Of a stretch of DNA of 64,000 nucleotides, positions 16,790 through 44,402 are shown piece after piece (position 1 is the first letter of the stretch; every line of letters begins with the position of its first letter). The notes beneath the pieces are model-generated. The model worked only from the letters and a program-made list of their open reading frames with translations, had not been told where the DNA came from and searched no databases. The stretch spans positions 2,688,001 to 2,752,000 of the forward strand of contig CAWEEQ010000004.1 of NCBI GenBank assembly GCA_963808235.1, written 5' to 3'. The stretch comes from an uncultured delta proteobacterium (GTDB lineage Bacteria; Desulfobacterota; Binatia; Binatales; Binataceae). The position numbers and the translations under genes are program-made.

Positions 16790-18103
16790 ATGACGCAAAT
16801 TGAAGCTGCCCGCAAGGGTATTATCACCCGCCAGATGACCGAAGTGGCGGAGGATGAAGGGCTTAACGCCGAGGATATCCGCGCACTGGTCGCGACCGGC
16901 GAGGCCGTGATCCCGCACAATATTCATCATGAGTTTCGCGCGATCGGAATCGGCAAGGGGCTGCGCACCAAGGTCAATGCGAATATCGGTGCGTCGAATT
17001 TCCATCAACTGATCGAAGAGGAAGTCGAGAAGCTTTACACCGCGGTCCGCTACGGCGCCGACTCGGTGATGGATCTTTCGACCGGCACCGATCTCGACAA
17101 GATTCGGGGTGAGATCCTGTCGCGATGCTCCGTGATTCTCGGCACCGTGCCGATTTACCAGCTTGGCTCCGAGCGCTCGATCATGGAGATGGAGATTGAG
17201 TTCTTTCTCGACGTGATCGAGCGGCAGGCGCGCCAGGGCGTCGATTACATGACACTGCATTGCGGGGTGACGCGCGAGAGCGTGAAACGCCTACGCGGGC
17301 ATGCTCGAATCGAAGGTATCGTGTCGCGCGGCGGCGCGATGCTGGCGGCGTGGATCGAGCGGACCGGCAACGAAAATCCGCTCTACGAACACTTCGACGA
17401 AGTCTGCGCCGTGCTCCGAGAGCATGACGTGACGATATCGATCGGCGACGGGCTTCGCCCCGGGGCGACCGGCGACGCAACCGATCGCGGGCAAATCGCA
17501 GAACTGCTGCTGATGGGCGAATTGGCCGACCGCGCGCGCACGATGGGCGTGCAGGTGATGATCGAGGGTCCCGGCCATGTGCCGCTCGATCAAATCGAGG
17601 CCAACGTGAAGCTCGAAAAGCGGGTATGCGGCGGCGCTCCGTTCTATGTGCTCGGACCGCTGACGTGCGACGTTGCGCCGGGTTACGATCACATCACGGG
17701 CGCGATCGGCGGCGCGGTCGCGTCGGCGGCCGGCACCGATTTTCTATGCTACGTGACCCCAGCCGAGCATCTCCGTCTCCCAGATATCGATGATGTGCGC
17801 GAGGGCGTAATCGCGACGCGAATCGCAGCGCATTCGGGCGACCTGGTGAAAGGGGTGCGCGGAGCGAAACAGTGGAACGATCAGATGTCGCGATTTCGCA
17901 AAGCGCTCAACTGGGAAGGGATGTACGCGATGGCGATGGATCCCGACAAGGCGCGCCGCTACAAGGAAGAAAGCGAAGCGGCGGGCTCGAACGTGTGCAC
18001 GATGTGCGGTTCGCTGTGCTCGATCAATATTGACAACGCGGCGCTGAAGTTCACGCACAAGCGTTCGCTCGCCGAGGCTCCCGCTCATGCCGCCGGCCGA
18101 TAA
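16790..18103 (+). CDS. thiC: Phosphomethylpyrimidine synthase (short ThiC type)
   Basis: KVNANIG, MDLSTG, GTVPIYQ, SRGG, GDGLRPG, EGPGHVP, APGYDHI, CYVTPAEHL, CTMCGSLC. Confidence 0.88.
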   Translation: MTQIEAARKGIITRQMTEVAEDEGLNAEDIRALVATGEAVIPHNIHHEFRAIGIGKGLRTKVNANIGASNFHQLIEEEVEKLYTAVRYGADSVMDLSTGTDLDKIRGEILSRCSVILGTVPIYQLGSERSIMEMEIEFFLDVIERQARQGVDYMTLHCGVTRESVKRLRGHARIEGIVSRGGAMLAAWIERTGNENPLYEHFDEVCAVLREHDVTISIGDGLRPGATGDATDRGQIAELLLMGELADRARTMGVQVMIEGPGHVPLDQIEANVKLEKRVCGGAPFYVLGPLTCDVAPGYDHITGAIGGAVASAAGTDFLCYVTPAEHLRLPDIDDVREGVIATRIAAHSGDLVKGVRGAKQWNDQMSRFRKALNWEGMYAMAMDPDKARRYKEESEAAGSNVCTMCGSLCSINIDNAALKFTHKRSLAEAPAHAAGR

Positions 18104-18572: not shown

Positions 18573-18697
18573 ATTAACACCCCCGGTTAGAATCGACCGG
18601 CGCACAAGGGGAATTCGCGCCGGTAGCATGACTCGCCTAAGTGGTTATAGTTGTATAGTGAAACTGACCCCGCTGGTTGGCGGGACGGATAAAATTT

Positions 18698-19936
18698 ATG
18701 GCAAAGACTTCGAAGAATATCCTCGATGAGGCGCGCACCTCGATTAAGCAGATCGATATCGACGAGGCGCGGCGCATGCTCGAGAAGCCGGGCACGGTGC
18801 TGGTCGACGTGCGCGAGGCCGACGAGTGGCGCCAGGGCCACATTCCACAGGCGGTCGCGATTCCGCGCGGTTTCCTGGAACTCAGGGTCGAAGAGAAGAT
18901 TCCCGACCATAAGACCCCGGTGATTCTGCAATGCGCGTCGGGCACGCGCTCGCTGCTCGCGGCGCGCACGCTGCGCGAACTCGGCTACGAGAACGTGTAC
19001 AACATGACCGGCGGCTTCAACGCGTGGAAAGATCGCGGCCTCAAGTGGATTGCGGATCGTGCGTTCAGCGCCGACGAGATCAACCGCTACTCGCGCCATT
19101 TCGTGATTCCCGAAGTCGGTGAAAAGGGACAGGCAAAGCTGCTCGACTCAAAGGTGCTGCTACTCGGCGCGGGCGCACTCGGCTCGCCGGTGGCTCTGTA
19201 CCTGGCGGCGGCGGGAGTCGGCACGATCGGGCTGGTCGATTTCGACGTGGTCGATCTGTCGAATTTGCAGCGGCAGATAATCCACACCACCGACCGGGTC
19301 GGCACACCGAAAACCGAGTCGGCGCAGAAGCAAATCAACGCGCTGAATCCGGGCGTCAAGGTGGTTCGTCACGACGTGCGCCTCACATCCGAGAACGTGA
19401 TGGACATAATCAAGGACTACGACGTGATCGTGAATTGCGGCGACAATTTCCCGACTCGCTACCTGATCAGCGACGCGTGCGTGTTCGCGAAGAAGCCACT
19501 GGTGGACGGCGCGATTTTTCGATTCGAGGGTAACGCGACGGTCTTCTACGCGGCCAAAGGCGGACCTTGCTACCGATGCCTGTATCCCGAGCCGGCGCCG
19601 CCGGACATGGCGCCGTCGTGCGCGGAAGCCGGCGTGCTCGGCGCAGTGCCGGGACTGATTGGATCGATCGAGGCGCTCGAGGCGATCAAGCTGATCGTCG
19701 GCGCGGGAGAGCCGCTGATCGGCAAGATGATTTACTTCGACACGCTGTCGGACAAGGACTACGTGCGGATGCTGAAGATCCGCAAGGATCCTAAGTGCCC
19801 CGTGTGCAGCGAGCATCCAACGCAGACTACGCTGATCGATTACGAGGCGTTCTGCGGAGTGGGCGCGTCGGACAACGGCAGCGAGCATTCGGAGCTGTCA
19901 ACGGTGCAACCGGCAGCGGGAGCGTCGGCGAGGTAG
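18698..19936 (+). CDS. moeB: Rhodanese-MoeB/MoeZ fusion (sulfur-carrier adenylyl/sulfurtransferase)
   Basis: N-terminal rhodanese (DVRE..EW..GHIP, CASGTRS); RYSRH, GAGALG, DFDVVDLSNLQRQ, CYRC, SCAEAG, CPVC. Confidence 0.9.
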   Translation: MAKTSKNILDEARTSIKQIDIDEARRMLEKPGTVLVDVREADEWRQGHIPQAVAIPRGFLELRVEEKIPDHKTPVILQCASGTRSLLAARTLRELGYENVYNMTGGFNAWKDRGLKWIADRAFSADEINRYSRHFVIPEVGEKGQAKLLDSKVLLLGAGALGSPVALYLAAAGVGTIGLVDFDVVDLSNLQRQIIHTTDRVGTPKTESAQKQINALNPGVKVVRHDVRLTSENVMDIIKDYDVIVNCGDNFPTRYLISDACVFAKKPLVDGAIFRFEGNATVFYAAKGGPCYRCLYPEPAPPDMAPSCAEAGVLGAVPGLIGSIEALEAIKLIVGAGEPLIGKMIYFDTLSDKDYVRMLKIRKDPKCPVCSEHPTQTTLIDYEAFCGVGASDNGSEHSELSTVQPAAGASAR

Positions 19937-34079: not shown

Positions 34080-35084
34080 ATGGCTGGTGGACATCGTATT
34101 GCGGTGGTTGGTGCTACCGGGGCGGTCGGGCAGACCGTGCTCAAGATTCTTGAGCAGCGCAAATTTCCGGTGCGCGATTTGAAGGCGTATGCGTCGCAGC
34201 GTTCGGTCGGCAAGACGGTGACGTTTGCCGGTGAATCGATTCCGGTGCTGCGCGCCGGTGCGGACGGATTCAAGGATATCGATATCGCGTTTTTCTCGGC
34301 CGGCTCGGAGCAGTCGCGCGAGTTCGCGCCGATGGCTGTGAAGGCCGGCGCGATTGTGATCGACAAGTCGAGCGCGTTTCGGATGGATCCTAACGTTCCG
34401 CTGGTGGTGCCCGAGATCAACGGCGCCGCCGCGCGGGCGCATAAGGGAATAATCGCGTGCCCGAATTGCACGACGATCGTCACCGTGATGCCGCTGAAGC
34501 CGATCCACGATCTCGGGCGTCTGAAGCGCGTGGTCGCGACCAGTTTCCAGGCCGTGTCCGGCGCGGGCGTCAACGGGGTTGCGGAGCTTCGCGAGCAGAC
34601 GATGGCGTGGTCGCGGGGCGAGGAAATCAAGTCAAAGTTTTTTCAGCATCAGATTGCGTTCAACCTGATTCCGCATATCGACAAGTTCGCCGAGGGCGGA
34701 TACACCGGCGAGGAAATAAAGCTAGTCAACGAGATCAGGAAGATCCTCGAGCTGCCCGACCTGCCGGTTTCGCCGACCACGGTGCGGGTGCCGGTTTTCA
34801 CCGCGCATTCGATTTCGGTAAACGCGGAGACTGAGAGCAAAGTCGCGGCGGCGGACGCGCGCGCGGCCTTCGATCGATTTCCGGGAATCCGTCTGTTCGA
34901 CGATCCCGCGCAGAATCGCTACCCGATGCCGATCATCGTGGAAGGACAGGACGATTGCTTCGTGGGGCGGATTCGCGAGGACTTGAGCTGCGCGAATGCA
35001 CTCAACTTCTGGGTGGTCGGCGATCAGCTACGCAAGGGCGCCGCGCTCAACGGCATCCAAATTGCCGAGCTGCTGATCGGATAA
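34080..35084 (+). CDS. asd: Aspartate-semialdehyde dehydrogenase
   Basis: VGATGAVG, SSAFRM..VPLVVPEIN, PNCTT, QAVSGAG, RVPV..HS, DQLRKGAALN. Confidence 0.95.
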   Translation: MAGGHRIAVVGATGAVGQTVLKILEQRKFPVRDLKAYASQRSVGKTVTFAGESIPVLRAGADGFKDIDIAFFSAGSEQSREFAPMAVKAGAIVIDKSSAFRMDPNVPLVVPEINGAAARAHKGIIACPNCTTIVTVMPLKPIHDLGRLKRVVATSFQAVSGAGVNGVAELREQTMAWSRGEEIKSKFFQHQIAFNLIPHIDKFAEGGYTGEEIKLVNEIRKILELPDLPVSPTTVRVPVFTAHSISVNAETESKVAAADARAAFDRFPGIRLFDDPAQNRYPMPIIVEGQDDCFVGRIREDLSCANALNFWVVGDQLRKGAALNGIQIAELLIG

Positions 35085-35119: not shown

Positions 35120-36493
35120 TCACGGCATCGGGATGGCCGCGCTGGTCGGATTCCAGTGTGTGGTGCCGGTCGGACTTCCCCCTAACACGGGCGCTGAAAG
35201 ATCGACGCGAACCAGGAACAGCGGCGGCTGCGGGTCGTGGTCGTTTGCCCAGGCATGAAAAAACGGGTCCGTATCCGCGAGCATGTAGGCCAGATTATTT
35301 TTCACGTCGATTGACAGCGAGTTGGGATCGCCGACGATACCGAGTTGGGTCGGCGTGCTGTCCACGTCGCCCATCGGGATCACGGTGGCGCAAATCGTAA
35401 AGACCGAGGCCGCGTCCGCAGTGGTATCGCTTCCGGGCTGGCCATTGTTGTCGAGCGCCCCGGGCACCGCCTTCGCCGGCAGATGAATCAGTTTCAGATT
35501 CTGACCGAATTCGTCGCTGATAACACCCTGATGAGTGACCCCGTTGACGACCGTCTGACCGCCCGGGCCCTCTCCGGTTGGTTCGAGAAATCCCAGTCCA
35601 GCGAATCTGATGTCCAACGCAGTGGCTGGACTCACACTTGTATCGAGCGTTGCGAAGTTGAAAGCGGTGGCCATGTCGGCTCCGACCTCATCGGATAGCA
35701 ACAGGATGTTGGTCGTGGGATCGAATCCGACTCCGTCAGTTGTAGCCCCGACGCTTTCGAAGGTTACCGGAACCAGCGGGAGCTTCGTGATATTCACGAT
35801 CTGATTTTCTCCGTCGCGCGAGACGAAGAGAATGCCGGTCGTTGTGTTGAGCGAGATCGAATCGGTGCCGATAGTGGTGATCACCGATGCGGCGTTGAAG
35901 ACCGGCGGTTCCACCGAGGTGTCCATCAGACCGACCGTAGAGGTTCCGGTCACGACCAGCAGGTTACGCACCGGGTCGGCGATGATTCCGCCGAATCCTC
36001 CGCTGTTGGTGATCCCGGGACAGGGGATTGTGTTGATCACGGTCTGAGTCGTTGTGTTTATTTCAAAGATGCTGACCGTGTCGTCGGCCAGGCGTCCTTC
36101 CGCATACACACGACCGTTCTTTTGATTGAACGCCCCGCCGGTCGGCTGAACAACGCCCGACAGTTCCAGCAGCTTGAGGACCGGATTCGCCGCACCAATC
36201 GTGAGGTCAACGACCGCCAATTGCGAGCTATTCGGAACCTGTGGTGCGGGCAGGATCGAAGCGTCAGGATTAGTCCGCACTCCTCCGCCGGTCAGCGTGT
36301 AGATCGGCACATAGCCGACGTTGTTCACTGTGTCGATCGCGATGAGCCCCTGGCCGGTCGCGCTGGAAGGTGGCGGTGGGGGCTTGTGGTGCTCGCCAGC
36401 GCAAGAAGCACAAGGATCACACGACGTAGTTAGAAATAGTCCCGACAACGCAAGCATCAGGCAAATGGCCACGCCCGCCCATCGAATGTTCAT
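35120..36493 (-). CDS. Exported beta-rich (YncE/propeller-like) protein, possible lipoprotein
   Basis: Signal peptide ending LTTSC, then DPCASC and a Pro run; repeated D-P/x-x-N blade-like motifs. Confidence 0.65.
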   Translation of the reverse strand: MNIRWAGVAICLMLALSGLFLTTSCDPCASCAGEHHKPPPPPSSATGQGLIAIDTVNNVGYVPIYTLTGGGVRTNPDASILPAPQVPNSSQLAVVDLTIGAANPVLKLLELSGVVQPTGGAFNQKNGRVYAEGRLADDTVSIFEINTTTQTVINTIPCPGITNSGGFGGIIADPVRNLLVVTGTSTVGLMDTSVEPPVFNAASVITTIGTDSISLNTTTGILFVSRDGENQIVNITKLPLVPVTFESVGATTDGVGFDPTTNILLLSDEVGADMATAFNFATLDTSVSPATALDIRFAGLGFLEPTGEGPGGQTVVNGVTHQGVISDEFGQNLKLIHLPAKAVPGALDNNGQPGSDTTADAASVFTICATVIPMGDVDSTPTQLGIVGDPNSLSIDVKNNLAYMLADTDPFFHAWANDHDPQPPLFLVRVDLSAPVLGGSPTGTTHWNPTSAAIPMP

Positions 36494-36751
36494 TGGATGT
36501 CCTCCCCGCAATCGAGACAAATACTGCTCAGCGGAATGCAATTCCTTGCTACCGCATCTAAGCCCCCGCTCAGTGCGCCGAAGATACGCAAAATGGAGCT
36601 ATAGAGGCAAGTGGAGGGGCAAGGTTTCGCGCCTGGAAGCTATCGGTTCTTTCACAGGACCTTCGGTCTGGTCGCTGGGCTGACCTATCGGTCTGGCGAT
36701 TGACAGCAGCCGCGCGCGCATATTACCGTAGCCGCGACTGCATTGATTGCA

Positions 36752-36873
36752 GCCTTATCGAGAGCGGCGGAGGGACTGGCCCGCTGATGCCGCAGCAACC
36801 GGCCCGTGATGGGTGCTGGTGCTAACTCCTGCAGGGGTCTCGGATCGTCCGAGAATCTCCTGGAAGATAAGGC
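36752..36873 (+). ncRNA. SAM-I (S-box) riboswitch
   Basis: GCCTTATCGAGAG-CGGCGGAGGGACTGGCCCGCTGATGCCG-CAGCAACC...GGTGCTAACTCCTGCAG...CTGGAAGATAAGGC; P1 pairing GCCTTATC/GATAAGGC. Confidence 0.92.
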
Positions 36874-36981
36874 GAGTGTATTTAGCCCTCGTCCTATCGT
36901 CTGCGCAGGATTTTTCACCGGCATCGTTGAAACGCGGTTGGCGTTGCGGCTCTCGACGGCGGCGGGAGAAGCGCTAACGTA

Positions 36982-37722
36982 GTGGCGACGAGGAAAACAT
37001 CATTCAGGATACTAATCGTCGGGGTCGGCGGACTCGGCGCGCCGGCGATCTGGGCGCTAGCTCGCGACGGCGCGCGGCGAATCACGCTGGTCGATCCCGA
37101 TCCGGTCGAATTGTCGAACCTCGCGCGCCAGGTAATTTTCCGCGACGACGATATCGGCGCGCCCAAAGTCGAAGCTGCGGCACGCCGGCTCAGCGAAAAA
37201 TTCCCGCAGATTAAAGTTGACAGTCACGCGATCGCGCTGGACGAGTCCAACGCGGCGAGTATCGTCGCGGAGCATGATTTTGTGATCGATGCGACCGACA
37301 GTCCGGTCGCGAAATTTTTGATTAACGACACCTGTATCGAGGCTGGCAAGCCGTTCGCGTACGGCGGCGTGATTGGGATGACCGGGCAGGCGATAACGGT
37401 GATTCCGGGCGCGAGCGCGTGTCTGCGCTGCGTGTTCGAGAATCCTCCCGGCGAGGAGGAGATTCAGAGTTGTCGAGAGGCCGGTATCGTCGGGCCGGTC
37501 GCGGGCGCGATCGGAACGATGCAGGCGGCGGAGGCGATGCGCGCCTCGCGCGCGCAGATGCCCCTTCTAGCAGGAAAAATTCTAACCTATGACGCTGCGA
37601 GTCCCGCGCGCGTCCGCATCACCGTGGTCAATCCGCGGCGCGGATGCGGATGCGGCGCAGAAAAGAAGTTGCGTCGGACGGCGACAGACAGTGCTGGCAA
37701 CCGGGCGAACGAGACGAGTTAA
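36982..37722 (+). CDS. ThiF/MoeB (E1-like) adenylyltransferase lacking the N-terminal RYSRQ helix
   Basis: GVGGLG, DPDPVELSNLARQ, PKV, DATD, CLRC, SCREAG, GCGCG; upstream in-frame stop at 36928. Confidence 0.85.
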   Translation: MATRKTSFRILIVGVGGLGAPAIWALARDGARRITLVDPDPVELSNLARQVIFRDDDIGAPKVEAAARRLSEKFPQIKVDSHAIALDESNAASIVAEHDFVIDATDSPVAKFLINDTCIEAGKPFAYGGVIGMTGQAITVIPGASACLRCVFENPPGEEEIQSCREAGIVGPVAGAIGTMQAAEAMRASRAQMPLLAGKILTYDAASPARVRITVVNPRRGCGCGAEKKLRRTATDSAGNRANETS

Positions 37723-37731
37723 GAGGACACG

Positions 37732-39000
37732 ATGATCTACGTAACGAATCTGAAATGTCGCGAGTGCGGGCAGGAGTATCCGATAAGCCCGCTCCACGTG
37801 TGCGAGACGTGCTTCGGGCCGCTCGAGGTCACCTACGACTACGCGAAGATTCGCGCGGCTATCTCGCGCAACGCGATCGAGAAGCGGGCGCATAATCTTT
37901 GGCGATATCGCGAATTGCTGCCGGTCGATTTCGCGGGCGAACCGGATATCGGTCCCAACTCAGGCTTCACTCCGCTGCTGCATTGTCATCGGCTGGGCGC
38001 GGAGCTTGGGCTAAAGAATCTCTATATCAAGGACGACACGGTCAACCATCCAACGCTCTCATACAAAGACCGCGTGGTCTCGGTCGCGATGGCTAAGGCG
38101 CGCGAGTTCGGTTTCACGACGGTCTCGTGCGCGTCGACGGGAAACCTGGCGACCGCGGTTGCGGCGCACGCGGCGCGCGCGGGATTGCAATGCTACATCT
38201 TCATGCCCGAAGGGGTGGAGGCGGGAAAGATTGTCGGCTCGACGATTTACGGCGCTCGCGTGATCACGATTCGCGGCAACTACGACGACGTCAACCGGCT
38301 ATGCAGCGAGATTGCGGACAAGTACGGGTGGGCATTTGTGAATATCAACCTGCGCCCGTTCTACACCGAAGGCGCAAAAACGTTCGGCTTCGAAGTTGCG
38401 GAGCAACTCGGGTGGCGGCTGCCGGATCATATTGTGGTGCCGACCGCGGGCGGGACGATTTTGCCGAAGGTCGCGAAGGCATTTAAGGAATTCAAGGAAG
38501 TCGGTCTGATCAAGAGCGGCGAGTTCAAGATTCATTCGGCGCAAGCCGCGGGTTCCGCGCCGGTGATACATGCACTGCACAAGCATACGGACCTGATTAC
38601 GCCGGTGAAGCCAGACACGATCGCGAAATCGATCGCGATCGGAAATCCGGCCGACGGATTTTACGTGTTGAAGGCGGTGCGCGAATCGGGCGGATGGGGC
38701 GACGTTGCGACCGACCCGGAGATAATCGACGCGATCAAACTGCTCGCGCGCTCAGAGGGTATCTTCGCGGAGCCGGCGGGCGGCACCACGCTCGCGGTCA
38801 CGCTCAAGCTGATCGCGCAGGGCCGTATCAAGCCGGACGAGACCGTGGTCGTGGCGATCACCGGCAACGGATACAAAACTCTCGAAGCGGTCGCGAGTGC
38901 GATCGATCAGCCGTCGATAATCGATGCGCGACTGAAAGATTTCGACGCGTTGTTCGAGCGGCTCACTGATGGAAAGCGCACTGCCGCAGGCGCCGCATGA
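37732..39000 (+). CDS. thrC: Threonine synthase-like PLP enzyme; context suggests O-phosphohomoserine sulfhydrylase
   Basis: N-terminal CxxC...CxxC, PTLSYKDR (PLP Lys), ASTGN, EGAKT, IAIGNP, TGNGYKT. Confidence 0.8.
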   Translation: MIYVTNLKCRECGQEYPISPLHVCETCFGPLEVTYDYAKIRAAISRNAIEKRAHNLWRYRELLPVDFAGEPDIGPNSGFTPLLHCHRLGAELGLKNLYIKDDTVNHPTLSYKDRVVSVAMAKAREFGFTTVSCASTGNLATAVAAHAARAGLQCYIFMPEGVEAGKIVGSTIYGARVITIRGNYDDVNRLCSEIADKYGWAFVNINLRPFYTEGAKTFGFEVAEQLGWRLPDHIVVPTAGGTILPKVAKAFKEFKEVGLIKSGEFKIHSAQAAGSAPVIHALHKHTDLITPVKPDTIAKSIAIGNPADGFYVLKAVRESGGWGDVATDPEIIDAIKLLARSEGIFAEPAGGTTLAVTLKLIAQGRIKPDETVVVAITGNGYKTLEAVASAIDQPSIIDARLKDFDALFERLTDGKRTAAGAA

Positions 39001-39082
39001 TCATGCAAATGCGTTCGCTGCTTGTTTGGGCGCAGCGGCCAGCATAAGTGTAAGAATTCAAGCAGGAGGTAACTTTCAAGCC

Positions 39083-39361
39083 ATGCCAGTACGGGTCAGA
39101 GTACCAACTCCTCTTAGAAGGTTCACCGCGGGTGTCGATGAAGTGCCGGCCGACGGCGCGTCGATCAAGGCGGTAATCGAAGACCTGGAAAAGCGTCATC
39201 CGGGGATGCGCGAGCGGCTGCTCGACGAAAAAGGCGACATCAGGCGTTTCGTGAATATCTACCTGAACGGCAACGACGTTCGCTTTCTCGACGCGATTAA
39301 CTCGAAGGTCAAGGATGGCGACGACATCTCAATCGTTCCCGCAATTGCCGGCGGACGCTAA
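39083..39361 (+). CDS. MoaD/ThiS/CysO ubiquitin-like sulfur carrier ending -AGGR
   Basis: V.VRVPT.LR, RRFVNIYLN..DVRFL, DGD.ISIVPAIAGGR; AGGAGGT RBS. Confidence 0.9.
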   Translation: MPVRVRVPTPLRRFTAGVDEVPADGASIKAVIEDLEKRHPGMRERLLDEKGDIRRFVNIYLNGNDVRFLDAINSKVKDGDDISIVPAIAGGR

Positions 39362-40370
39362 GCGCGAGCCGCTCGTCGCGGGCGAGCGCGAGATCGTGCC
39401 GGTCGGACGCGCGCGGAGCGTGCTCGATCTGATCGGCAATACGCCGCTGCTGGAAATCAAGCGGCTCACGGCGGGACTGCTGAATCCCGGGGTGCGAATT
39501 TTCGCCAAGCTCGAGGGCTTCAACCCGGGCGGCTCGATCAAGGATCGGCCCGCGAAGAGCATGCTCGAGGTCGGAATTGCCGAGGGCAAGCTGAAGCCGG
39601 GCAAGGTGATCCTCGACTCGACATCGGGCAACACCGGAATTGCGCTTGCGATGCTGGGGGCGACGCTCGGCTATCCGGTCGAGCTGGTGATGCCGTCGAA
39701 CGTGAGCCGCGAGCGCAAAAAGATAATCGAAGCTTACGGCGCGAAGATTCATTTTTCGGATCCGATGGAAGGTTCGGACGGCGCGATCATCATGTGCCGC
39801 GCAATCCTCGAAAAAAATCCCGAGCGCTACTTCAAGCCCGACCAGTACAACAACGAGGCGAACTCGCTGGCGCATTTCCAGACCACCGGCCCCGAGATCT
39901 GGCGCCAGACGCGCGGCCAGGTGACCCACTTTGTCGCGGCGATCGGAACCGGCGGAACGATAATGGGCACGGGCAGGTTTCTGAAGTCGAAGAATCGCGC
40001 CATCAAGGTGATCGCGGTCGAGCCGGACGACGCGATGCATGGGCTCGAGGGCCTCAAGCACATGGCGAGCTCGATCGTACCGGGCATCTACCACGAGAAA
40101 GAGATCGACGAAAAAATTCCAGTCGGCACCGAGGAGGCGTACGAGATGGTGTACGCACTCGGGCAGGCGGAGGGCATCCTGGTCGGGCAGTCGTCGGGTG
40201 CGGCGATGATCGCGGCGCTCAAGGTGGCGCAATCGATTCGCGAAGGCGTCGTGACGACGGTGTTCTGCGACTTCGGCGAAAAATATCTTTCGACCAACCT
40301 GTGGATCGGATGGCAGGAATGGCGCCCCGACAACCTGCAACAACTCAAAGCCAAGTGGAAAAAGAAGTGA
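39315..40370 (+). CDS. cysM: Cysteine synthase B / CysM-like PLP enzyme
   Basis: IGNTPL, KLEGFNPGGSIKDR, STSGNTG, QYNN.AN, GTGGT, GQSSGA; start uncertain. Confidence 0.85.
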   Translation: MATTSQSFPQLPADAKREPLVAGEREIVPVGRARSVLDLIGNTPLLEIKRLTAGLLNPGVRIFAKLEGFNPGGSIKDRPAKSMLEVGIAEGKLKPGKVILDSTSGNTGIALAMLGATLGYPVELVMPSNVSRERKKIIEAYGAKIHFSDPMEGSDGAIIMCRAILEKNPERYFKPDQYNNEANSLAHFQTTGPEIWRQTRGQVTHFVAAIGTGGTIMGTGRFLKSKNRAIKVIAVEPDDAMHGLEGLKHMASSIVPGIYHEKEIDEKIPVGTEEAYEMVYALGQAEGILVGQSSGAAMIAALKVAQSIREGVVTTVFCDFGEKYLSTNLWIGWQEWRPDNLQQLKAKWKKK

Positions 40371-40378
40371 CCCGCGAT

Positions 40379-40624
40379 ATGGAACGTCTTCACGAACGCT
40401 ACTACCTGAGCTATCCGCGCAGCCTGATCAAGGAGCCGATCCTTTACCAGCTGGTAAAGAAATTCGATCTCATCTTCAACATTCGCGGCGCCAGCGTGTC
40501 TGAAGAGATGGGACTGGTCGCGGTTGAGTTCGAAGGCAGCGCCGATCAGATCGAGCGCGCGCTCACCTGGTTGCGCAGCACCGGAGTTACCGTCGAGCCG
40601 ATCGAAAAAAATGTGATCGAATAG
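40379..40624 (+). CDS. Stand-alone NIL domain protein
   Basis: MERLHERYYLSYP..LIKEPILYQLVKKFDL.FNIRGASV...G...VEFEG....IERA..WL...GV.VEP. Confidence 0.8.
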   Translation: MERLHERYYLSYPRSLIKEPILYQLVKKFDLIFNIRGASVSEEMGLVAVEFEGSADQIERALTWLRSTGVTVEPIEKNVIE

Positions 40625-40630
40625 CGTGCG

Positions 40631-41232
40631 ATGGCCCTGACTCACGCGCAAATCGAACGCTACAGCCGGCAGATAATCGTTCCGCGTCTCGGCGGGCGGG
40701 GCCAGGAACGTATCCTCGCGGCCAGAATTGGGATCGCCGGCGAGGCGCGCGATATCGGAACTCCGCTCGCGTACTTAATTGGCGCGGGAGTTGGGAGAAT
40801 CGGCGTTCGGGTTGTCGGCAATCAGAGCGGATTTGATGAGACTATCGCGTCGATGCGGCAGCTCAACTCCGATGTGTCGGTTCGCATCGCTGACAAGTCA
40901 TTTGTGGACGTCGATCTGATCCTGGCCATCATCGGCAGTGACGCGGCGGCGAAAGTTGCGGAAGAGATCACTAGCAGTCGCGAGATGCGCGCACGGTGGT
41001 CGCGCGGCTCGATGCGCCGGGAATAATCGCCGTCATCCCCGACGCGCGCGGCCCGCGAATCGCAGACTCGTCGATTCTCGCGCGATTCGGCACGCGCTTG
41101 GAAGCTGCGGATTTTATCGCGATGCTCGCGACGGCCGAGGCATTCAAGCTGGTCGCCGGCTACGCGGAAAATCCATCGCGGGCGATCATTGAGTTCGATG
41201 GTTACGAGACCAAATCTCGCGTTCTGGCCTGA
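40631..41232 (+). CDS. Degenerate ThiF/MoeB-like protein (inactive adenylation domain), 1-nt frameshift near 40992
   Basis: Keeps QIERYSRQIIVP..G..GQE, YL.GAGVG, LN.DV and AEAFKLVAG; lacks GxGxxG, SNLxRQ and all Cys. Confidence 0.7.
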
Positions 41233-41237
41233 GCCAA

Positions 41238-41921
41238 ATGTACAAACTCTGGATGTTCGACTTCGACAACACGCTCGCGCGCCTCGAACCGGAAGTAGAT
41301 TGGGCGGGCGGCCGCCTGGTGCTCGAACCTTATCTCCGCTCGGTAGGCGCGCCCGATGAACTCTTCGAGCGAATACCGCGCGGCAACCTCCCGCTCTACG
41401 ACGCGTACCGAAAGTTGGTATTCGCCGGCGCGCATGGCTCGCCTCGGTCAACCGAACTCGAGCACGCGTCGGAAATAATCGAAGCGATCGAGCTTGCTGG
41501 AGTCGACCGTGCAAAGCCGCTCGAAGGTGCGCTCGAAATTCTTGCCGCTTTGAAGAAACTTGGCGCATCGGTCGCGATCGTCACGTCCAATTCCTCGCGC
41601 ACCATTCGCCGATGGTTCGAAGTGAATCGCGTTGATTTGAAAATCGACGCAATCGTCGGACGCGACAGTCTGCTCGCACTCAAGCCGGCGCCGGACATGG
41701 TCCTTCGCGCGCTGGAAATTTTGTCGGCTAAACCTTCCGATGCCGCCTTTGTCGGCGACAGCGAAGCTGATCTGCTCGCGGCCCGAAGTTCGGGCGTGCG
41801 ATTTTTCGGAATTGCGGCATCGGAGGCGGCGCGCGAGCGCCTGCTCGCGGCAGGCGGCACGGAAATTTACGCATCACCGACGGCGCTCGCGATTCATCTG
41901 AATCTGCTCGCCGCTCACTAG
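41238..41921 (+). CDS. HAD-superfamily phosphatase
   Basis: FDFDNTL, IVTSN, KPAPD, FVGDS.AD. Confidence 0.85.
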   Translation: MYKLWMFDFDNTLARLEPEVDWAGGRLVLEPYLRSVGAPDELFERIPRGNLPLYDAYRKLVFAGAHGSPRSTELEHASEIIEAIELAGVDRAKPLEGALEILAALKKLGASVAIVTSNSSRTIRRWFEVNRVDLKIDAIVGRDSLLALKPAPDMVLRALEILSAKPSDAAFVGDSEADLLAARSSGVRFFGIAASEAARERLLAAGGTEIYASPTALAIHLNLLAAH

Positions 41922-42011
41922 ACGCCATCGGCGCTTGTGTCCTTCGTCGAGATTAAGTAACTTCTTTGGTTCACCAAGTAATCTATTCGTAAGGGAGCTT
42001 CGTTTTTGCAG

Positions 42012-42555
42012 ATGGATCAAGGGTTTACCTTGTGGTTTACGGGTCTTTCCGGGGCGGGAAAATCGACGCTCGCGAACCTGGTCGCGGCGGAACTGAAGAA
42101 ACGAGGGCATCGCGTCGAGATTCTCGATGGCGACGAAGTCCGCACCAATCTGTCCAAGGGACTCGGCTTTTCCAAAGAGGATCGCGACATCAATATCCGG
42201 CGGATTGGCTACGTGTGTCATCTGCTGGCGCGCAATGGCGTGATCGCGATCTCGGCGGCGATTTCGCCCTATCGCGAAGTTCGCGACGAGGTGCGCCGCC
42301 AACACGATCGCTTTTTCGAAGTATTCGTGCGCTGCACGATCGACAAGCTGGTCGAGCGCGATGTGAAGGGCCTCTACAAGAAGGCGCTCGCCGGCGAGAT
42401 CAAATCGTTCACCGGAGTTTCGGACCCTTACGAAGAACCGCACAAGCCTGAACTCATCGTCGATAGCAGCACGGAAACCGTCGAGCAGAGCCTGGCCAAG
42501 TTGCTCAGTCAGGCTCGAAGAGCTGAAGTACATCAGCAAGGGAGCATCGCGATGA
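42012..42555 (+). CDS. cysC: Adenylyl-sulfate (APS) kinase; true C-terminus probably displaced by a 1-nt insertion near 42509
   Basis: WFTGLSGAGKST, LDGD..R, LGFSKEDRD.NI.R, ISPY, RDVKGLY, FTGVSDPYE.P; alternative frame RLEELKYISKGASR* ends at a TGA overlapping the sat ATG. Confidence 0.85.
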
Positions 42556-43727
42556 GCGTGCGCGACGATGCGATCTCGGCGCACGGCGGCGGTGAGCTGG
42601 TCGATCTGAAAGCGCCGGCAGCGGAGCGCGCGGCGCTCGGGGCTCGGGCGGCAAAGATGCCGGTCGTCACGCTGAATGCTCGCGACCTTGCGGATCTCGA
42701 AATGCTCGCGTCAGGCGCGTTCTCGCCGCTGACAGGTTTCATGGGCGAGGCGGATTACACTCGCTCGCGCGACGAGATGCGGCTTGCGTCGGGACTGCCG
42801 TGGTCGATTCCGATCACGCTGGCTGTCGATGAGGCAACCGCGCGTTCGCTCAAGAGCGGCAGTGAAGTCGCGCTCGCAACCGAAGACGGCAAGCGGCTCG
42901 CGATTCTCAAGCTTGCGGAAATTTACAAAGTCGATCGTCAGAAAGAAGCGCAAAGTGTGTTCGGAACGGCCGAGGACGCGCATCCGGGAGCGAAGAACGT
43001 CACCTCGATGCCGCCCTACTGCCTGGCCGGAGGTGTGACACTGATCGAAGACATACCGGGGCGCACGTTTCTCGAGTTCCCGCGCGAGCCGCGGCAGACG
43101 CGAGCCGCGTTTCGCGAGCGCGGATGGAAAAAGATCGTCGCGTTCCAGACTCGCAATCCGACTCATCGCGCGCATGAGTATATCCAGAAAGCGGCGCTCG
43201 AAATCTGCGACGGGCTGATGATTCATCCGCTGGTAGGCGAGACCAAAGGCGACGACGTGCCCGCCGCGGTCCGGATGGAGACCTACAAAGTTTTGCTCGA
43301 GCTGTACTATCCGAAGGATCGCGCGATGCTCGGCGTGTTCCCGGCGCATATGCGTTACGGCGGTCCGCGCGAGGCGATATTGCACGCGATCGTGCGCCGC
43401 AACTACGGATGCACGCACTTCATCGTCGGGCGCGATCATGCGGGAGTTGGGAACTATTACGGCAGCTACGACGCGCAGAAAATATTCGAGCGCTTCACGC
43501 CCGCCGAACTCGGAATCACGCCGTTGATGTTCGAGAACACGTTTTACTGCAAGCGATGCAACGCGATGGCGTCGTTCAAAACCTGTCCGCACACCGACGA
43601 CGATCGCTTGATCCTGTCGGGCACCAAGGTCCGCGAGATGCTACGCGCAGGCCAGGCGCCGCCGCCGGAGTTCACGCGCCCGGAGCTGGCCGCGATTCTG
43701 GTGCGGGCAATGCACGAAGCGAAGTAG
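42552..43727 (+). CDS. sat: Sulfate adenylyltransferase
   Basis: HGGGELVD, GAFSPLTGFM, FQTRNPTHRAHE, MRYGGPREA, GRDHAGVG, CxxC...CPH, SGTKVR. Confidence 0.93.
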   Translation: MSVRDDAISAHGGGELVDLKAPAAERAALGARAAKMPVVTLNARDLADLEMLASGAFSPLTGFMGEADYTRSRDEMRLASGLPWSIPITLAVDEATARSLKSGSEVALATEDGKRLAILKLAEIYKVDRQKEAQSVFGTAEDAHPGAKNVTSMPPYCLAGGVTLIEDIPGRTFLEFPREPRQTRAAFRERGWKKIVAFQTRNPTHRAHEYIQKAALEICDGLMIHPLVGETKGDDVPAAVRMETYKVLLELYYPKDRAMLGVFPAHMRYGGPREAILHAIVRRNYGCTHFIVGRDHAGVGNYYGSYDAQKIFERFTPAELGITPLMFENTFYCKRCNAMASFKTCPHTDDDRLILSGTKVREMLRAGQAPPPEFTRPELAAILVRAMHEAK

Positions 43728-43770: not shown

Positions 43771-44166
43771 CTATTGGATCAACCGGAAACCCTTTCGGCG
43801 CGCGGCCCTGCGGTCGAACGTCGCGGTGTATTCACATCCGGCTCGAGAATTCGCCGACGCGATCAAACTGTCAGCAAAGTCAGCACCATTCTGGTACTCA
43901 TGAAGCGCGGAACGAGCGTCGTCGGGACGCTCAATCGACACTTGACTGGTCTGCAAGAGTGCCCCGAGCAGAGTGACAATCGTGGATCGGGAGTACTTGT
44001 ATCCCCGTTCGAGCACCCAGACTAACTCGGCCAAAACCACGTGATTGACAACACCCGGCTCCTCTACTGAGCAATCATTCTCAATAAATTTAACCGCCGC
44101 TCGAAACTGGGCGGGGTCATCTCTAACGAAGTAGCGAATCAGAATGTTGGTATCGATCCCCTTCAC
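43771..44166 (-). CDS. vapC: VapC PIN-domain toxin
   Basis: IDTNILIRY, ELVWVL, DFADSLI, TFD. Confidence 0.9.
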   Translation of the reverse strand: MKGIDTNILIRYFVRDDPAQFRAAVKFIENDCSVEEPGVVNHVVLAELVWVLERGYKYSRSTIVTLLGALLQTSQVSIERPDDARSALHEYQNGADFADSLIASANSRAGCEYTATFDRRAARRKGFRLIQ

Positions 44167-44402
44167 CGTCGGCCGAATCTGCTCCTGATAGCCTCGTCCA
44201 TCTGTTCAATCGTCAGGCGCCGCGGAGCAGGGGCGAGCATTCCCTTGAGTTCCCGGATATCGATATTCTTCGGCACCATCACAACCTTACCGTCAGGTTG
44301 AATTACGAATTCGATTTTGTCCCCCGCTCGGAGCTTGAGATGGTTTCGGACCTTCAACGGGATCGTGGTCTGTCCCTTTCTGGTGATAGTCGATGTGGCC
44401 AT
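44163..44402 (-). CDS. vapB: AbrB/MazE-type antitoxin
   Basis: TITRKGQTTIP..VR..L.L..GDKIEF; 4-nt overlap with the toxin. Confidence 0.88.
   Translation of the reverse strand: MATSTITRKGQTTIPLKVRNHLKLRAGDKIEFVIQPDGKVVMVPKNIDIRELKGMLAPAPRRLTIEQMDEAIRSRFGRR

Follow-up and report, generated by a model that had tools for sequence, protein, structure and literature searches.

A divided ThiF pair in the sulfur-carrier operon of Binatia: a candidate asymmetric adenylating enzyme made of two small subunits

Introduction

Prokaryotic activators of sulfur carriers are the textbook ancestors of the E1 enzymes. MoeB and ThiF form symmetric homodimers with two active sites, each subunit binding ATP and carrier (PMC12355090, in its account of these enzymes), while ThiF Arg11 and MoeB Arg14 have been described as arginine fingers coming from the neighbouring subunit (PMC13139853, in the passages on these residues). 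The subject of the present work is a different arrangement, found in a soil bacterium of the class Binatia (an uncultured delta proteobacterium, assembly GCA_963808235.1). The stretch analysed, hereafter the window, comprises 64,000 nucleotides of contig CAWEEQ010000004.1 (positions 2,688,001 to 2,752,000), and its forward strand carries a sulfur-carrier operon with two ThiF-family genes. The product of the first, ThiF-A, keeps the full set of catalytic motifs and has no N-terminal finger helix; that of the second, ThiF-B, keeps the finger helix and has no ATP site. The two probably form an asymmetric heterodimeric adenylyltransferase of the MoeB/ThiF type, acting on a carrier of the CysO/MetO type.

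The closest described enzymes, MoeB, ThiF and MoeZ (complexes MoeB-MoaD 1JW9 and ThiF-ThiS 1ZUD), share the fold, and the same chemistry is expected. ThiF-A carries all the catalytic residues of MoeB, ThiF-B aligns with MoeB from end to end, the carrier is of the MoaD/ThiS beta-grasp type, and the finger also acts in trans in MoeB and ThiF. Unlike in those homodimers, finger and active site lie here on two gene products, one subunit being devoid of an ATP site. As for the pathway, the CysO thiocarboxylate route to cysteine is well known. The CysO-CysM-MoeZ-Mec system of M. tuberculosis and the MetO-MetM-MoeZ-Mec system of Streptomyces resemble the present locus in joining carrier, CysM and ThrC-like enzyme in one operon, but their activating enzyme is one MoeZ bearing a rhodanese domain, not an A/B pair without rhodanese; moreover, a NIL protein is added here and no Mec/JAMM gene occurs among the open reading frames (ORFs) of the window.

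Asymmetry as such has precedents among E1-fold proteins, namely yeast Tcd1/Tcd2 and the bacterial defence E1s. The latter (Bil/Bub-type) are reportedly single polypeptides with E2 and deubiquitinase partners in defence, unlike the Binatia pair, which would be a two-gene sulfur-carrier enzyme. Inactive and active adenylation domains have been discussed for them (PMC10557695). Tcd1/Tcd2 is a ThiF-family heterodimer with cyclic N6-threonylcarbamoyladenosine (ct6A) dehydratase activity, in which an inactive paralogue lends its arginine finger to the active one, and homodimeric relatives occur in other species (PMC13139853, in its description of the yeast proteins). That system is eukaryotic and mitochondrial, has a tRNA substrate and consists of two full-length subunits, whereas the finger helix is physically missing from ThiF-A and the pair belongs to bacterial sulfur-carrier activation. 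SAE1/SAE2, NAE1/UBA3 and the inactive and active adenylation domains of UBA1 likewise combine an inactive adenylation-fold subunit with an active one, and Arg57 of UBA1, from the inactive half, sits at the gamma-phosphate/pyrophosphate site (PMC12355090, in its UBA1 part). The Binatia pair differs from these eukaryotic E1s in having no Cys domain, ubiquitin-fold domain or E2, in a product that is presumably a thiocarboxylate and not a thioester relay, and in the independent origin of its inactive subunit, since ThiF-B is most closely related to complete ThiF paralogues from the same operon. No prior description of a two-gene active/inactive ThiF pair in bacteria was found in the main text of the open full-text literature, in agreement with the first-pass annotation of this DNA, which knew of none.

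The putative active and inactive subunits

The genes concerned are the following:

36982-37722, forward strand: ThiF-A, putative active adenylation subunit without the N-terminal arginine-finger helix, 246 residues, GTG start (Pfam ThiF, E 8.5e-64)
40631-40993, forward strand: ThiF-B, 5' part, with the RYSRQ finger helix and a degenerate Rossmann half (orthologue columns 1-121)
40994-41232, forward strand: ThiF-B, 3' part, carrying dimer helix and C-terminal sheet, shifted by one base relative to the 5' part

ThiF-A matches the Pfam ThiF domain (PF00899) over positions 20-237 of 238 with 215 bits (cut-off 28.1), and the NCBIfam ThiF, MoeB and UbaA models align to it only from model positions 21-33 on. 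It scores below every equivalog cut-off (ThiF TIGR02356, MoeB TIGR02355 and NF004281, MoeZ NF005902, UbaA NF047750), the best score being 191.3 bits vs a cut-off of 275.25; judged by its sequence, it is a member of the ThiF family without a named equivalog. The GxGxxG motif, the ribose Asp, SNLxRQ, a Lys and two Asp are invariant in 19 A-type rows, as are four Zn-type Cys and the Cys of SCREAG. The first annotation had listed GVGGLG, SNLARQ, the Zn-type Cys motifs and the SCREAG Cys in this protein and no RYSRQ upstream, and both observations hold. A hidden N-terminus was sought and not found: 17 in-frame codons are all that separate the upstream stop from the GTG, and no R[YFW]xR[QH] motif occurs in any forward frame of 36400-37010. 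RYxRQ is present in none of the 65 ThiF-A ORFs from Binataceae, and 15 of the 17 A-position genes across the class have no finger; the two which retain it stand beside a fully active B paralogue.

ThiF-B is split between the ORFs 40631-41026 and 40996-41232, whose frames differ by one base. Its N-terminal part matches Pfam ThiF over positions 1-49 only (E 3e-4), at 20.4 bits and thus below the gathering threshold of 28.1, and the protein is covered by no NCBIfam model. A profile built from 64 rows of the B family can nevertheless be aligned in full with MoeB 1JW9 (E 9.5e-22) and ThiF 1ZFN (E 3.5e-21), and places RYSRQ on the RYNRQ of MoeB. RYSRQ, the AGVG turn, the dimer helix and the C-terminal sheet are kept; the P-loop is not conserved, an 18-residue gap falls on the MoeB segment from SNLQRQ through the Lys, and ThiF-B is thus left without ATP-binding P-loop, SNLxRQ/Lys segment or catalytic Asp. 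This profile bears out the motif inventory drawn up at first sight. The predicted fold is confident (predicted local distance difference test, pLDDT, 89.7; predicted template modelling score, pTM, 0.87), and the nearest structures found by Foldseek are Uba4, ThiF and MoeB (E 1e-8 to 1e-10, query-normalised TM-score, TMq, 0.62-0.70). The match of the B profile to SAE1 (E 0.004-0.008) is weak and alone not significant. L3, R10, R13, Q14, Q25 and G53 are invariant in the 64 rows, R13 being the putative finger arginine whose conservation the first annotation had proposed to check. Conservation is highest in residues 1-30 (0.75-0.82) and falls to 0.47 in the former P-loop and 0.25 in the former SNLxRQ region.

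Apart from overlapping Rossmann-type matches in ThiF-A, neither protein has a Pfam domain beyond the ThiF fold; the Cys domain of heterodimeric E1s and the ubiquitin-fold domain are absent from both, and no E2-like gene was found among the ORFs scanned.

Co-occurrence and paired loss

Both genes are conserved in well over 100 genomes, which excludes chance. In all 16 loci compared across the class (16 genomes, 10 families) the order is A, ThrC-like gene, carrier, CysM, in some cases NIL, and B, so that the co-occurrence expected from the outset is found. Nine Binataceae loci (L051-L058, L110) have none of the four genes in between; there A is directly followed by B, the stop codon of the one lying near or overlapping the start of the other.

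The motif states of the two genes are coupled. A finger-less A stands beside a B without SNLxRQ in 15 of 15 genomes of the class, and in 14 of these the P-loop has also gone from B. The remaining one, G245, is intermediate: the finger of A and the SNLxRQ of B are lost and the P-loop of B is kept. In two further genomes, G029 and G275, A keeps its finger and B keeps all motifs. Discordant pairs are therefore absent from all 17 genomes. G029, G245 and G275 are all members of a single GTDB family (f6). Outside the class, the equivalent clusters of five genomes from the same phylum contain ten ThiF genes, every one of them complete.

In the tree, A and the A-position genes of f6 form a clade (support 99 in the Shimodaira-Hasegawa-like approximate likelihood ratio test, SH-aLRT), and all B genes together with the B-position genes of f6 lie on one side of a branch with support 91. 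Trees and paired motif states together indicate that a complete ThiF gene was duplicated within the operon and that the copies then underwent complementary loss; as read from these sequences, the A/B pair arose by complementary degeneration after duplication.

The compact form of the cluster in some Binatus (asd-A-B-HAD-CysC/Sat, without the block of ThrC-like gene, carrier, CysM and NIL) was seen at the nine loci just mentioned and in G002, G005, G007 and G013. A carrier-like gene lies elsewhere in Binatus genomes with this form, the one inspected standing alone, and in one metagenome-assembled genome (MAG) both forms of the cluster occur, on separate contigs (L058, L074). The substrate of the A/B pair may not be the operon's carrier only.

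Predicted complex

The complex was modelled with the intact A/B pair of a relative (L009), using alignments of 19 and 64 rows. The interaction prediction score from aligned errors (ipSAE) was 0.91 in three runs vs 0.01 for the best of three controls; 58 of 80 solved complexes and 2 of 110 mismatched pairs come up to this mark. The partners had a pLDDT of 85 or more, and 98% or more of the contacts were shared between runs. In the predicted interface, B residues 6, 9-14, 16-18 and 20, that is, the RYSRQ helix, meet A residues 40-41 and 43-45 of the SNLARQ loop, the contact for which the first-pass annotation had suggested looking; two central helices and the C-terminal strands also take part. 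The 43 predicted interface residues of B (of 201) include 14 of its 33 most conserved residues (Fisher p 0.0023). In the model, A and B thus fit the MoeB dimer, their preference for each other over A/A being outside its reach.

The operon and a proposed mechanism

The other genes of the cluster are:

34080-35084, forward strand: asd, aspartate-semialdehyde dehydrogenase, head of the cluster (Pfam Semialdhyde_dh E 1.7e-33, Semialdhyde_dhC E 1.7e-51)
37732-39000, forward strand: ThrC-like pyridoxal phosphate (PLP) enzyme with N-terminal Zn ribbon, candidate MetM-type homocysteine synthase (PALP E 2.4e-72)
39086-39361, forward strand: ThiS/MoaD/SAMP1-like sulfur carrier with C-terminus GGR (Pfam ThiS E 9e-15)
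39315-40370, forward strand: CysM-type cysteine synthase (PALP E 9e-71)
40379-40624, forward strand: stand-alone NIL-domain protein, ATG at 40379 (Pfam NIL E 3e-15 for 40385-40621)
41238-41921, forward strand: HAD-family hydrolase (HAD_2 E 1.9e-23)
42006-43727, forward strand: CysC-Sat, APS kinase fused to ATP sulfurylase (APS_kinase E 3.5e-60, PUA_2 E 1.3e-51, ATP-sulfurylase E 1.1e-96)

A beta-grasp carrier with a GG tail thus stands beside a CysM and a ThrC-like gene, as in the pathways of the CysO/MetO type. The carrier passes the NCBIfam cut-offs of SAMP1 (61.3 bits, cut-off 60) and moaD_arch (53.9 bits, cut-off 49.5), CysM that of the cysKM subfamily (350.6 bits, cut-off 344.15), and the ThrC-like enzyme those of two threonine synthase models. 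Its reading as MetM rests on its place beside the carrier and on the frequent misannotation of MetM as threonine synthase. This misannotation and the MetM/MetO pathway have been reported in a GapMind preprint of 2026, in the part which cites Hasebe 2024. Of 78 carrier tails read, 53 end in GGR and seven in plain GG; most consist of GG and one further residue, for which a peptidase would be needed. One Prok-JAB gene occurs on the contig of the window, some 1.6 Mb distant (G000:C4:1107376-1107678).

In four of the five genomes of other classes, a ThiS-like carrier (about residues 7-124) is followed directly by NIL in one open frame (L137 6993-7517, L138 5266-5877, L139 8976-9575, L140 3008-3532), while the NIL of the window is a separate protein encoded after CysM. 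Since the carrier needs a free GG end, the carrier-NIL product would be a precursor to be cleaved, or NIL a removable cap.

In the proposed mechanism, the residue trailing the GG of the carrier would first be trimmed. ThiF-A, as the sole working ATP/Mg site, would bind ATP-Mg and the trimmed tail and form the acyl-adenylate at the C-terminal glycine. ThiF-B would complete the dimer as its second half, its N-terminal helix lending Arg13 of RYSRQ in trans to the gamma-phosphate pocket of ThiF-A, a role comparable to that of the inactive adenylation domain in eukaryotic E1s. Sulfide or persulfide, possibly by way of a conserved Cys of ThiF-A, would then convert the adenylate to the carrier thiocarboxylate, which would feed CysM for cysteine and the ThrC-like, MetM-type enzyme for homocysteine; these last two steps are modelled on the CysO and MetO/MetM pathways. 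The division of labour put forward in the first annotation is thus supported by the paired motif states, the conservation of both genes, purifying selection on B and the A+B model. That the heterodimer forms in the cell, in preference to A2, and that the arginine of B matters for catalysis is inferred. The sulfur donor named here and the substrates assigned to both PLP enzymes are likewise deductions.

Several observations weigh against this interpretation. MoeB and ThiF can do without the finger, the R59A exchange in Tcd1 lowers activity by only 26%, and E. coli TcdA has no finger (all three from the passages of PMC13139853 on finger function), so that A might work without B and the heterodimer need not be the obligate one put forward in the first annotation. 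Four Binatus species keep A-B and have no close orthologue of the carrier with the query used (best 33-38% identity), and one database protein of 447 residues (P0236) fuses ThiF-B in frame to the HAD hydrolase usually encoded behind it and not to A. The monophyly of the three B-position genes of f6 is borderline (approximately unbiased test, p-AU 0.055), and the genomes are related, so that the paired loss perhaps reflects as few as one or two events. As solved MoeB/ThiF homodimers exist, the good score of the A+B model may reflect the predictor's memory of them. Finally, ThiF-B is frameshifted in this assembly, and another ThiF gene of the window could serve as a back-up for carrier activation: a complete rhodanese-ThiF at 18677-19933 (forward strand), with its own RYSRH finger, which adjoins thiC (16790-18100) and is probably the activator for thiamine or the molybdenum cofactor.

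Alternative explanations

The alternative which survives best, although it is unlikely, is that ThiF-B has truly been inactivated in this organism by a one-base deletion, the pathway running on A alone or on the rhodanese-ThiF. The break is present in the assembly, and every other gene of the operon is intact. The first annotation had placed an indel at 40992; the missing base belongs behind 40993. A contig from sequencing run X4 carries a T behind 40993 that restores a single frame, with three other differences over 161 nucleotides (98% identity). X4 is the only run to bridge the site, a contig of X1 ending exactly at 40993. In the search of read runs for this strain the best holder contained 0.40 of the sampled words and no run held the exact strain, which leaves room for a genuine deletion. 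Against it stand the T of the 98%-identical strain and the state of both halves of the gene, which are otherwise undamaged: they cover all columns of the intact orthologues but one and are 66-71% identical to them. In three of 80 Binataceae loci B is in pieces, and each of these has one to three further operon genes broken up as well, a pattern typical of indels in the assembly. The break in the window may thus be an assembly error or a recent mutation.

Slightly less probable is an accessory role of ThiF-B, in which A would be a finger-less homodimer like TcdA and B a scaffold, a regulator or a chaperone of the carrier, its N-terminus being conserved for contact with the HAD hydrolase, the NIL protein, a PLP enzyme or the carrier. 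The dispensability of the finger in MoeB and ThiF and its absence from TcdA (PMC13139853, same passages) would agree with such a role, as would the species that keep A-B without a close carrier orthologue, the B-HAD protein P0236 and the position of the HAD gene, which directly follows ThiF-B in most of the 80 loci. P0236 may be a real fusion hinting at contact between B and HAD, or an indel artefact; it is the single fusion cluster, and the sole long form, among the 150 representatives listed, in which a B-A fusion was sought and not found. Against it, a role of B unrelated to A does not predict the coupling of finger loss in A with death of the site in B in 17 of 17 genomes. Moreover, B has kept the dimer helix and the C-terminal sheet of MoeB, its conserved residues are over-represented at the predicted interface with A, and A abuts B whenever the intervening genes have been lost.

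That B is a functionless, decaying relic of a duplicated ThiF is very improbable: every catalytic motif is lost and some families of the class have a B of only 155-170 residues (L035-L043), but B is whole in 77 of the 80 loci and occurs in every one of the 16 loci sampled across 10 families, its fold is predicted with confidence, its invariant residues hold across clusters less than 50% identical to one another, and its median ratio of nonsynonymous to synonymous substitution rates (dN/dS) is 0.255 (0.13 in columns 1-60, 0.30 in the rest) vs 0.21 for A.

Maintenance and distribution of ThiF-B

The dN/dS values refer to the loci passing the motif filter (17 of 29 for B, 27 of 29 for A), and B is under purifying selection and not decaying. 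The possibility raised at first, that B might be a pseudogene or often absent, is further answered by its distribution. In the class search all 14 genomes of the window's family, G018 included, match the B profile over positions 1-170 or further. Among same-genus genomes, of which G018 and G023 are unpublished, the B N-terminal query is matched over at least 113 of 131 residues in 20 of 24; with the same query, G004 and G023 give matches over residues 1-57 or 1-58 at 74-75% identity, G022 (82% complete) gives a match of the canonical type only, and G024 (89% complete) gives none.

A search of 1.84 billion representatives with the B profile returned 3731 matches at E<=1e-3, 370 at <=1e-10 and 83 clusters at <=1e-30, the matches of the B family being mostly of 200-245 residues with full-length coverage. 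Relatives in databases come from 'Candidatus Binatus sp.' and are annotated as 'hypothetical protein'. No B was recognised outside Binatia: in 150 genomes of the phylum the matches span only the first 60-95 or so profile positions, and all eleven partially matching genes that were inspected proved to be complete ThiF genes. Within the class, the B forms of other families are too degenerate for the Binatus profile beyond the N-terminus. The B-position genes of these families (L035-L043) were seen to be alike throughout only in about 45 N-terminal residues, and the Zn cysteines are lost from B in Binatus and in the families with the 155-170-residue form, while the CxxC pairs are kept in others.

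Significance

There is perhaps an even chance that Binatia carry an independently evolved bacterial counterpart of the inactive/active adenylation pair of eukaryotic E1s, set in a plain sulfur-carrier pathway. The rise of the asymmetric eukaryotic E1 core is, to our knowledge, known by inference only. Here, two complete paralogues (in other classes and in two f6 genomes), the intermediate G245 and the fully complementary pair are all found in living lineages. Should the proposal be right, and should heterodimers form already between the complete paralogues, these lineages would allow a stepwise reconstruction of how E1 asymmetry arose through duplication followed by complementary loss. A whole bacterial class would then divide labour in E1 fashion between two small proteins, with relatives that keep the symmetric and intermediate states, and the pair, with about 240 residues for A and about 200 for B, would offer a simple system for measuring what the inactive half and its arginine contribute. 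Furthermore, annotation is corrected, the 'hypothetical protein' B being a member of the ThiF family.

Neighbouring genes

In the gene order of most Binataceae loci, asd lies upstream of ThiF-A, as in the window. The best 80 loci of the species collection bear the labels Binatus, Binataceae or 'delta proteobacterium' MAG, apart from one Stellaceae and one Thermodesulfobacteriota. Just downstream of the sulfur cluster of the window, on the reverse strand, a PIN-domain gene (43771-44166) and a small upstream partner ORF (44163-44402) form a pair resembling a toxin-antitoxin system of the VapBC type (43771-44402).

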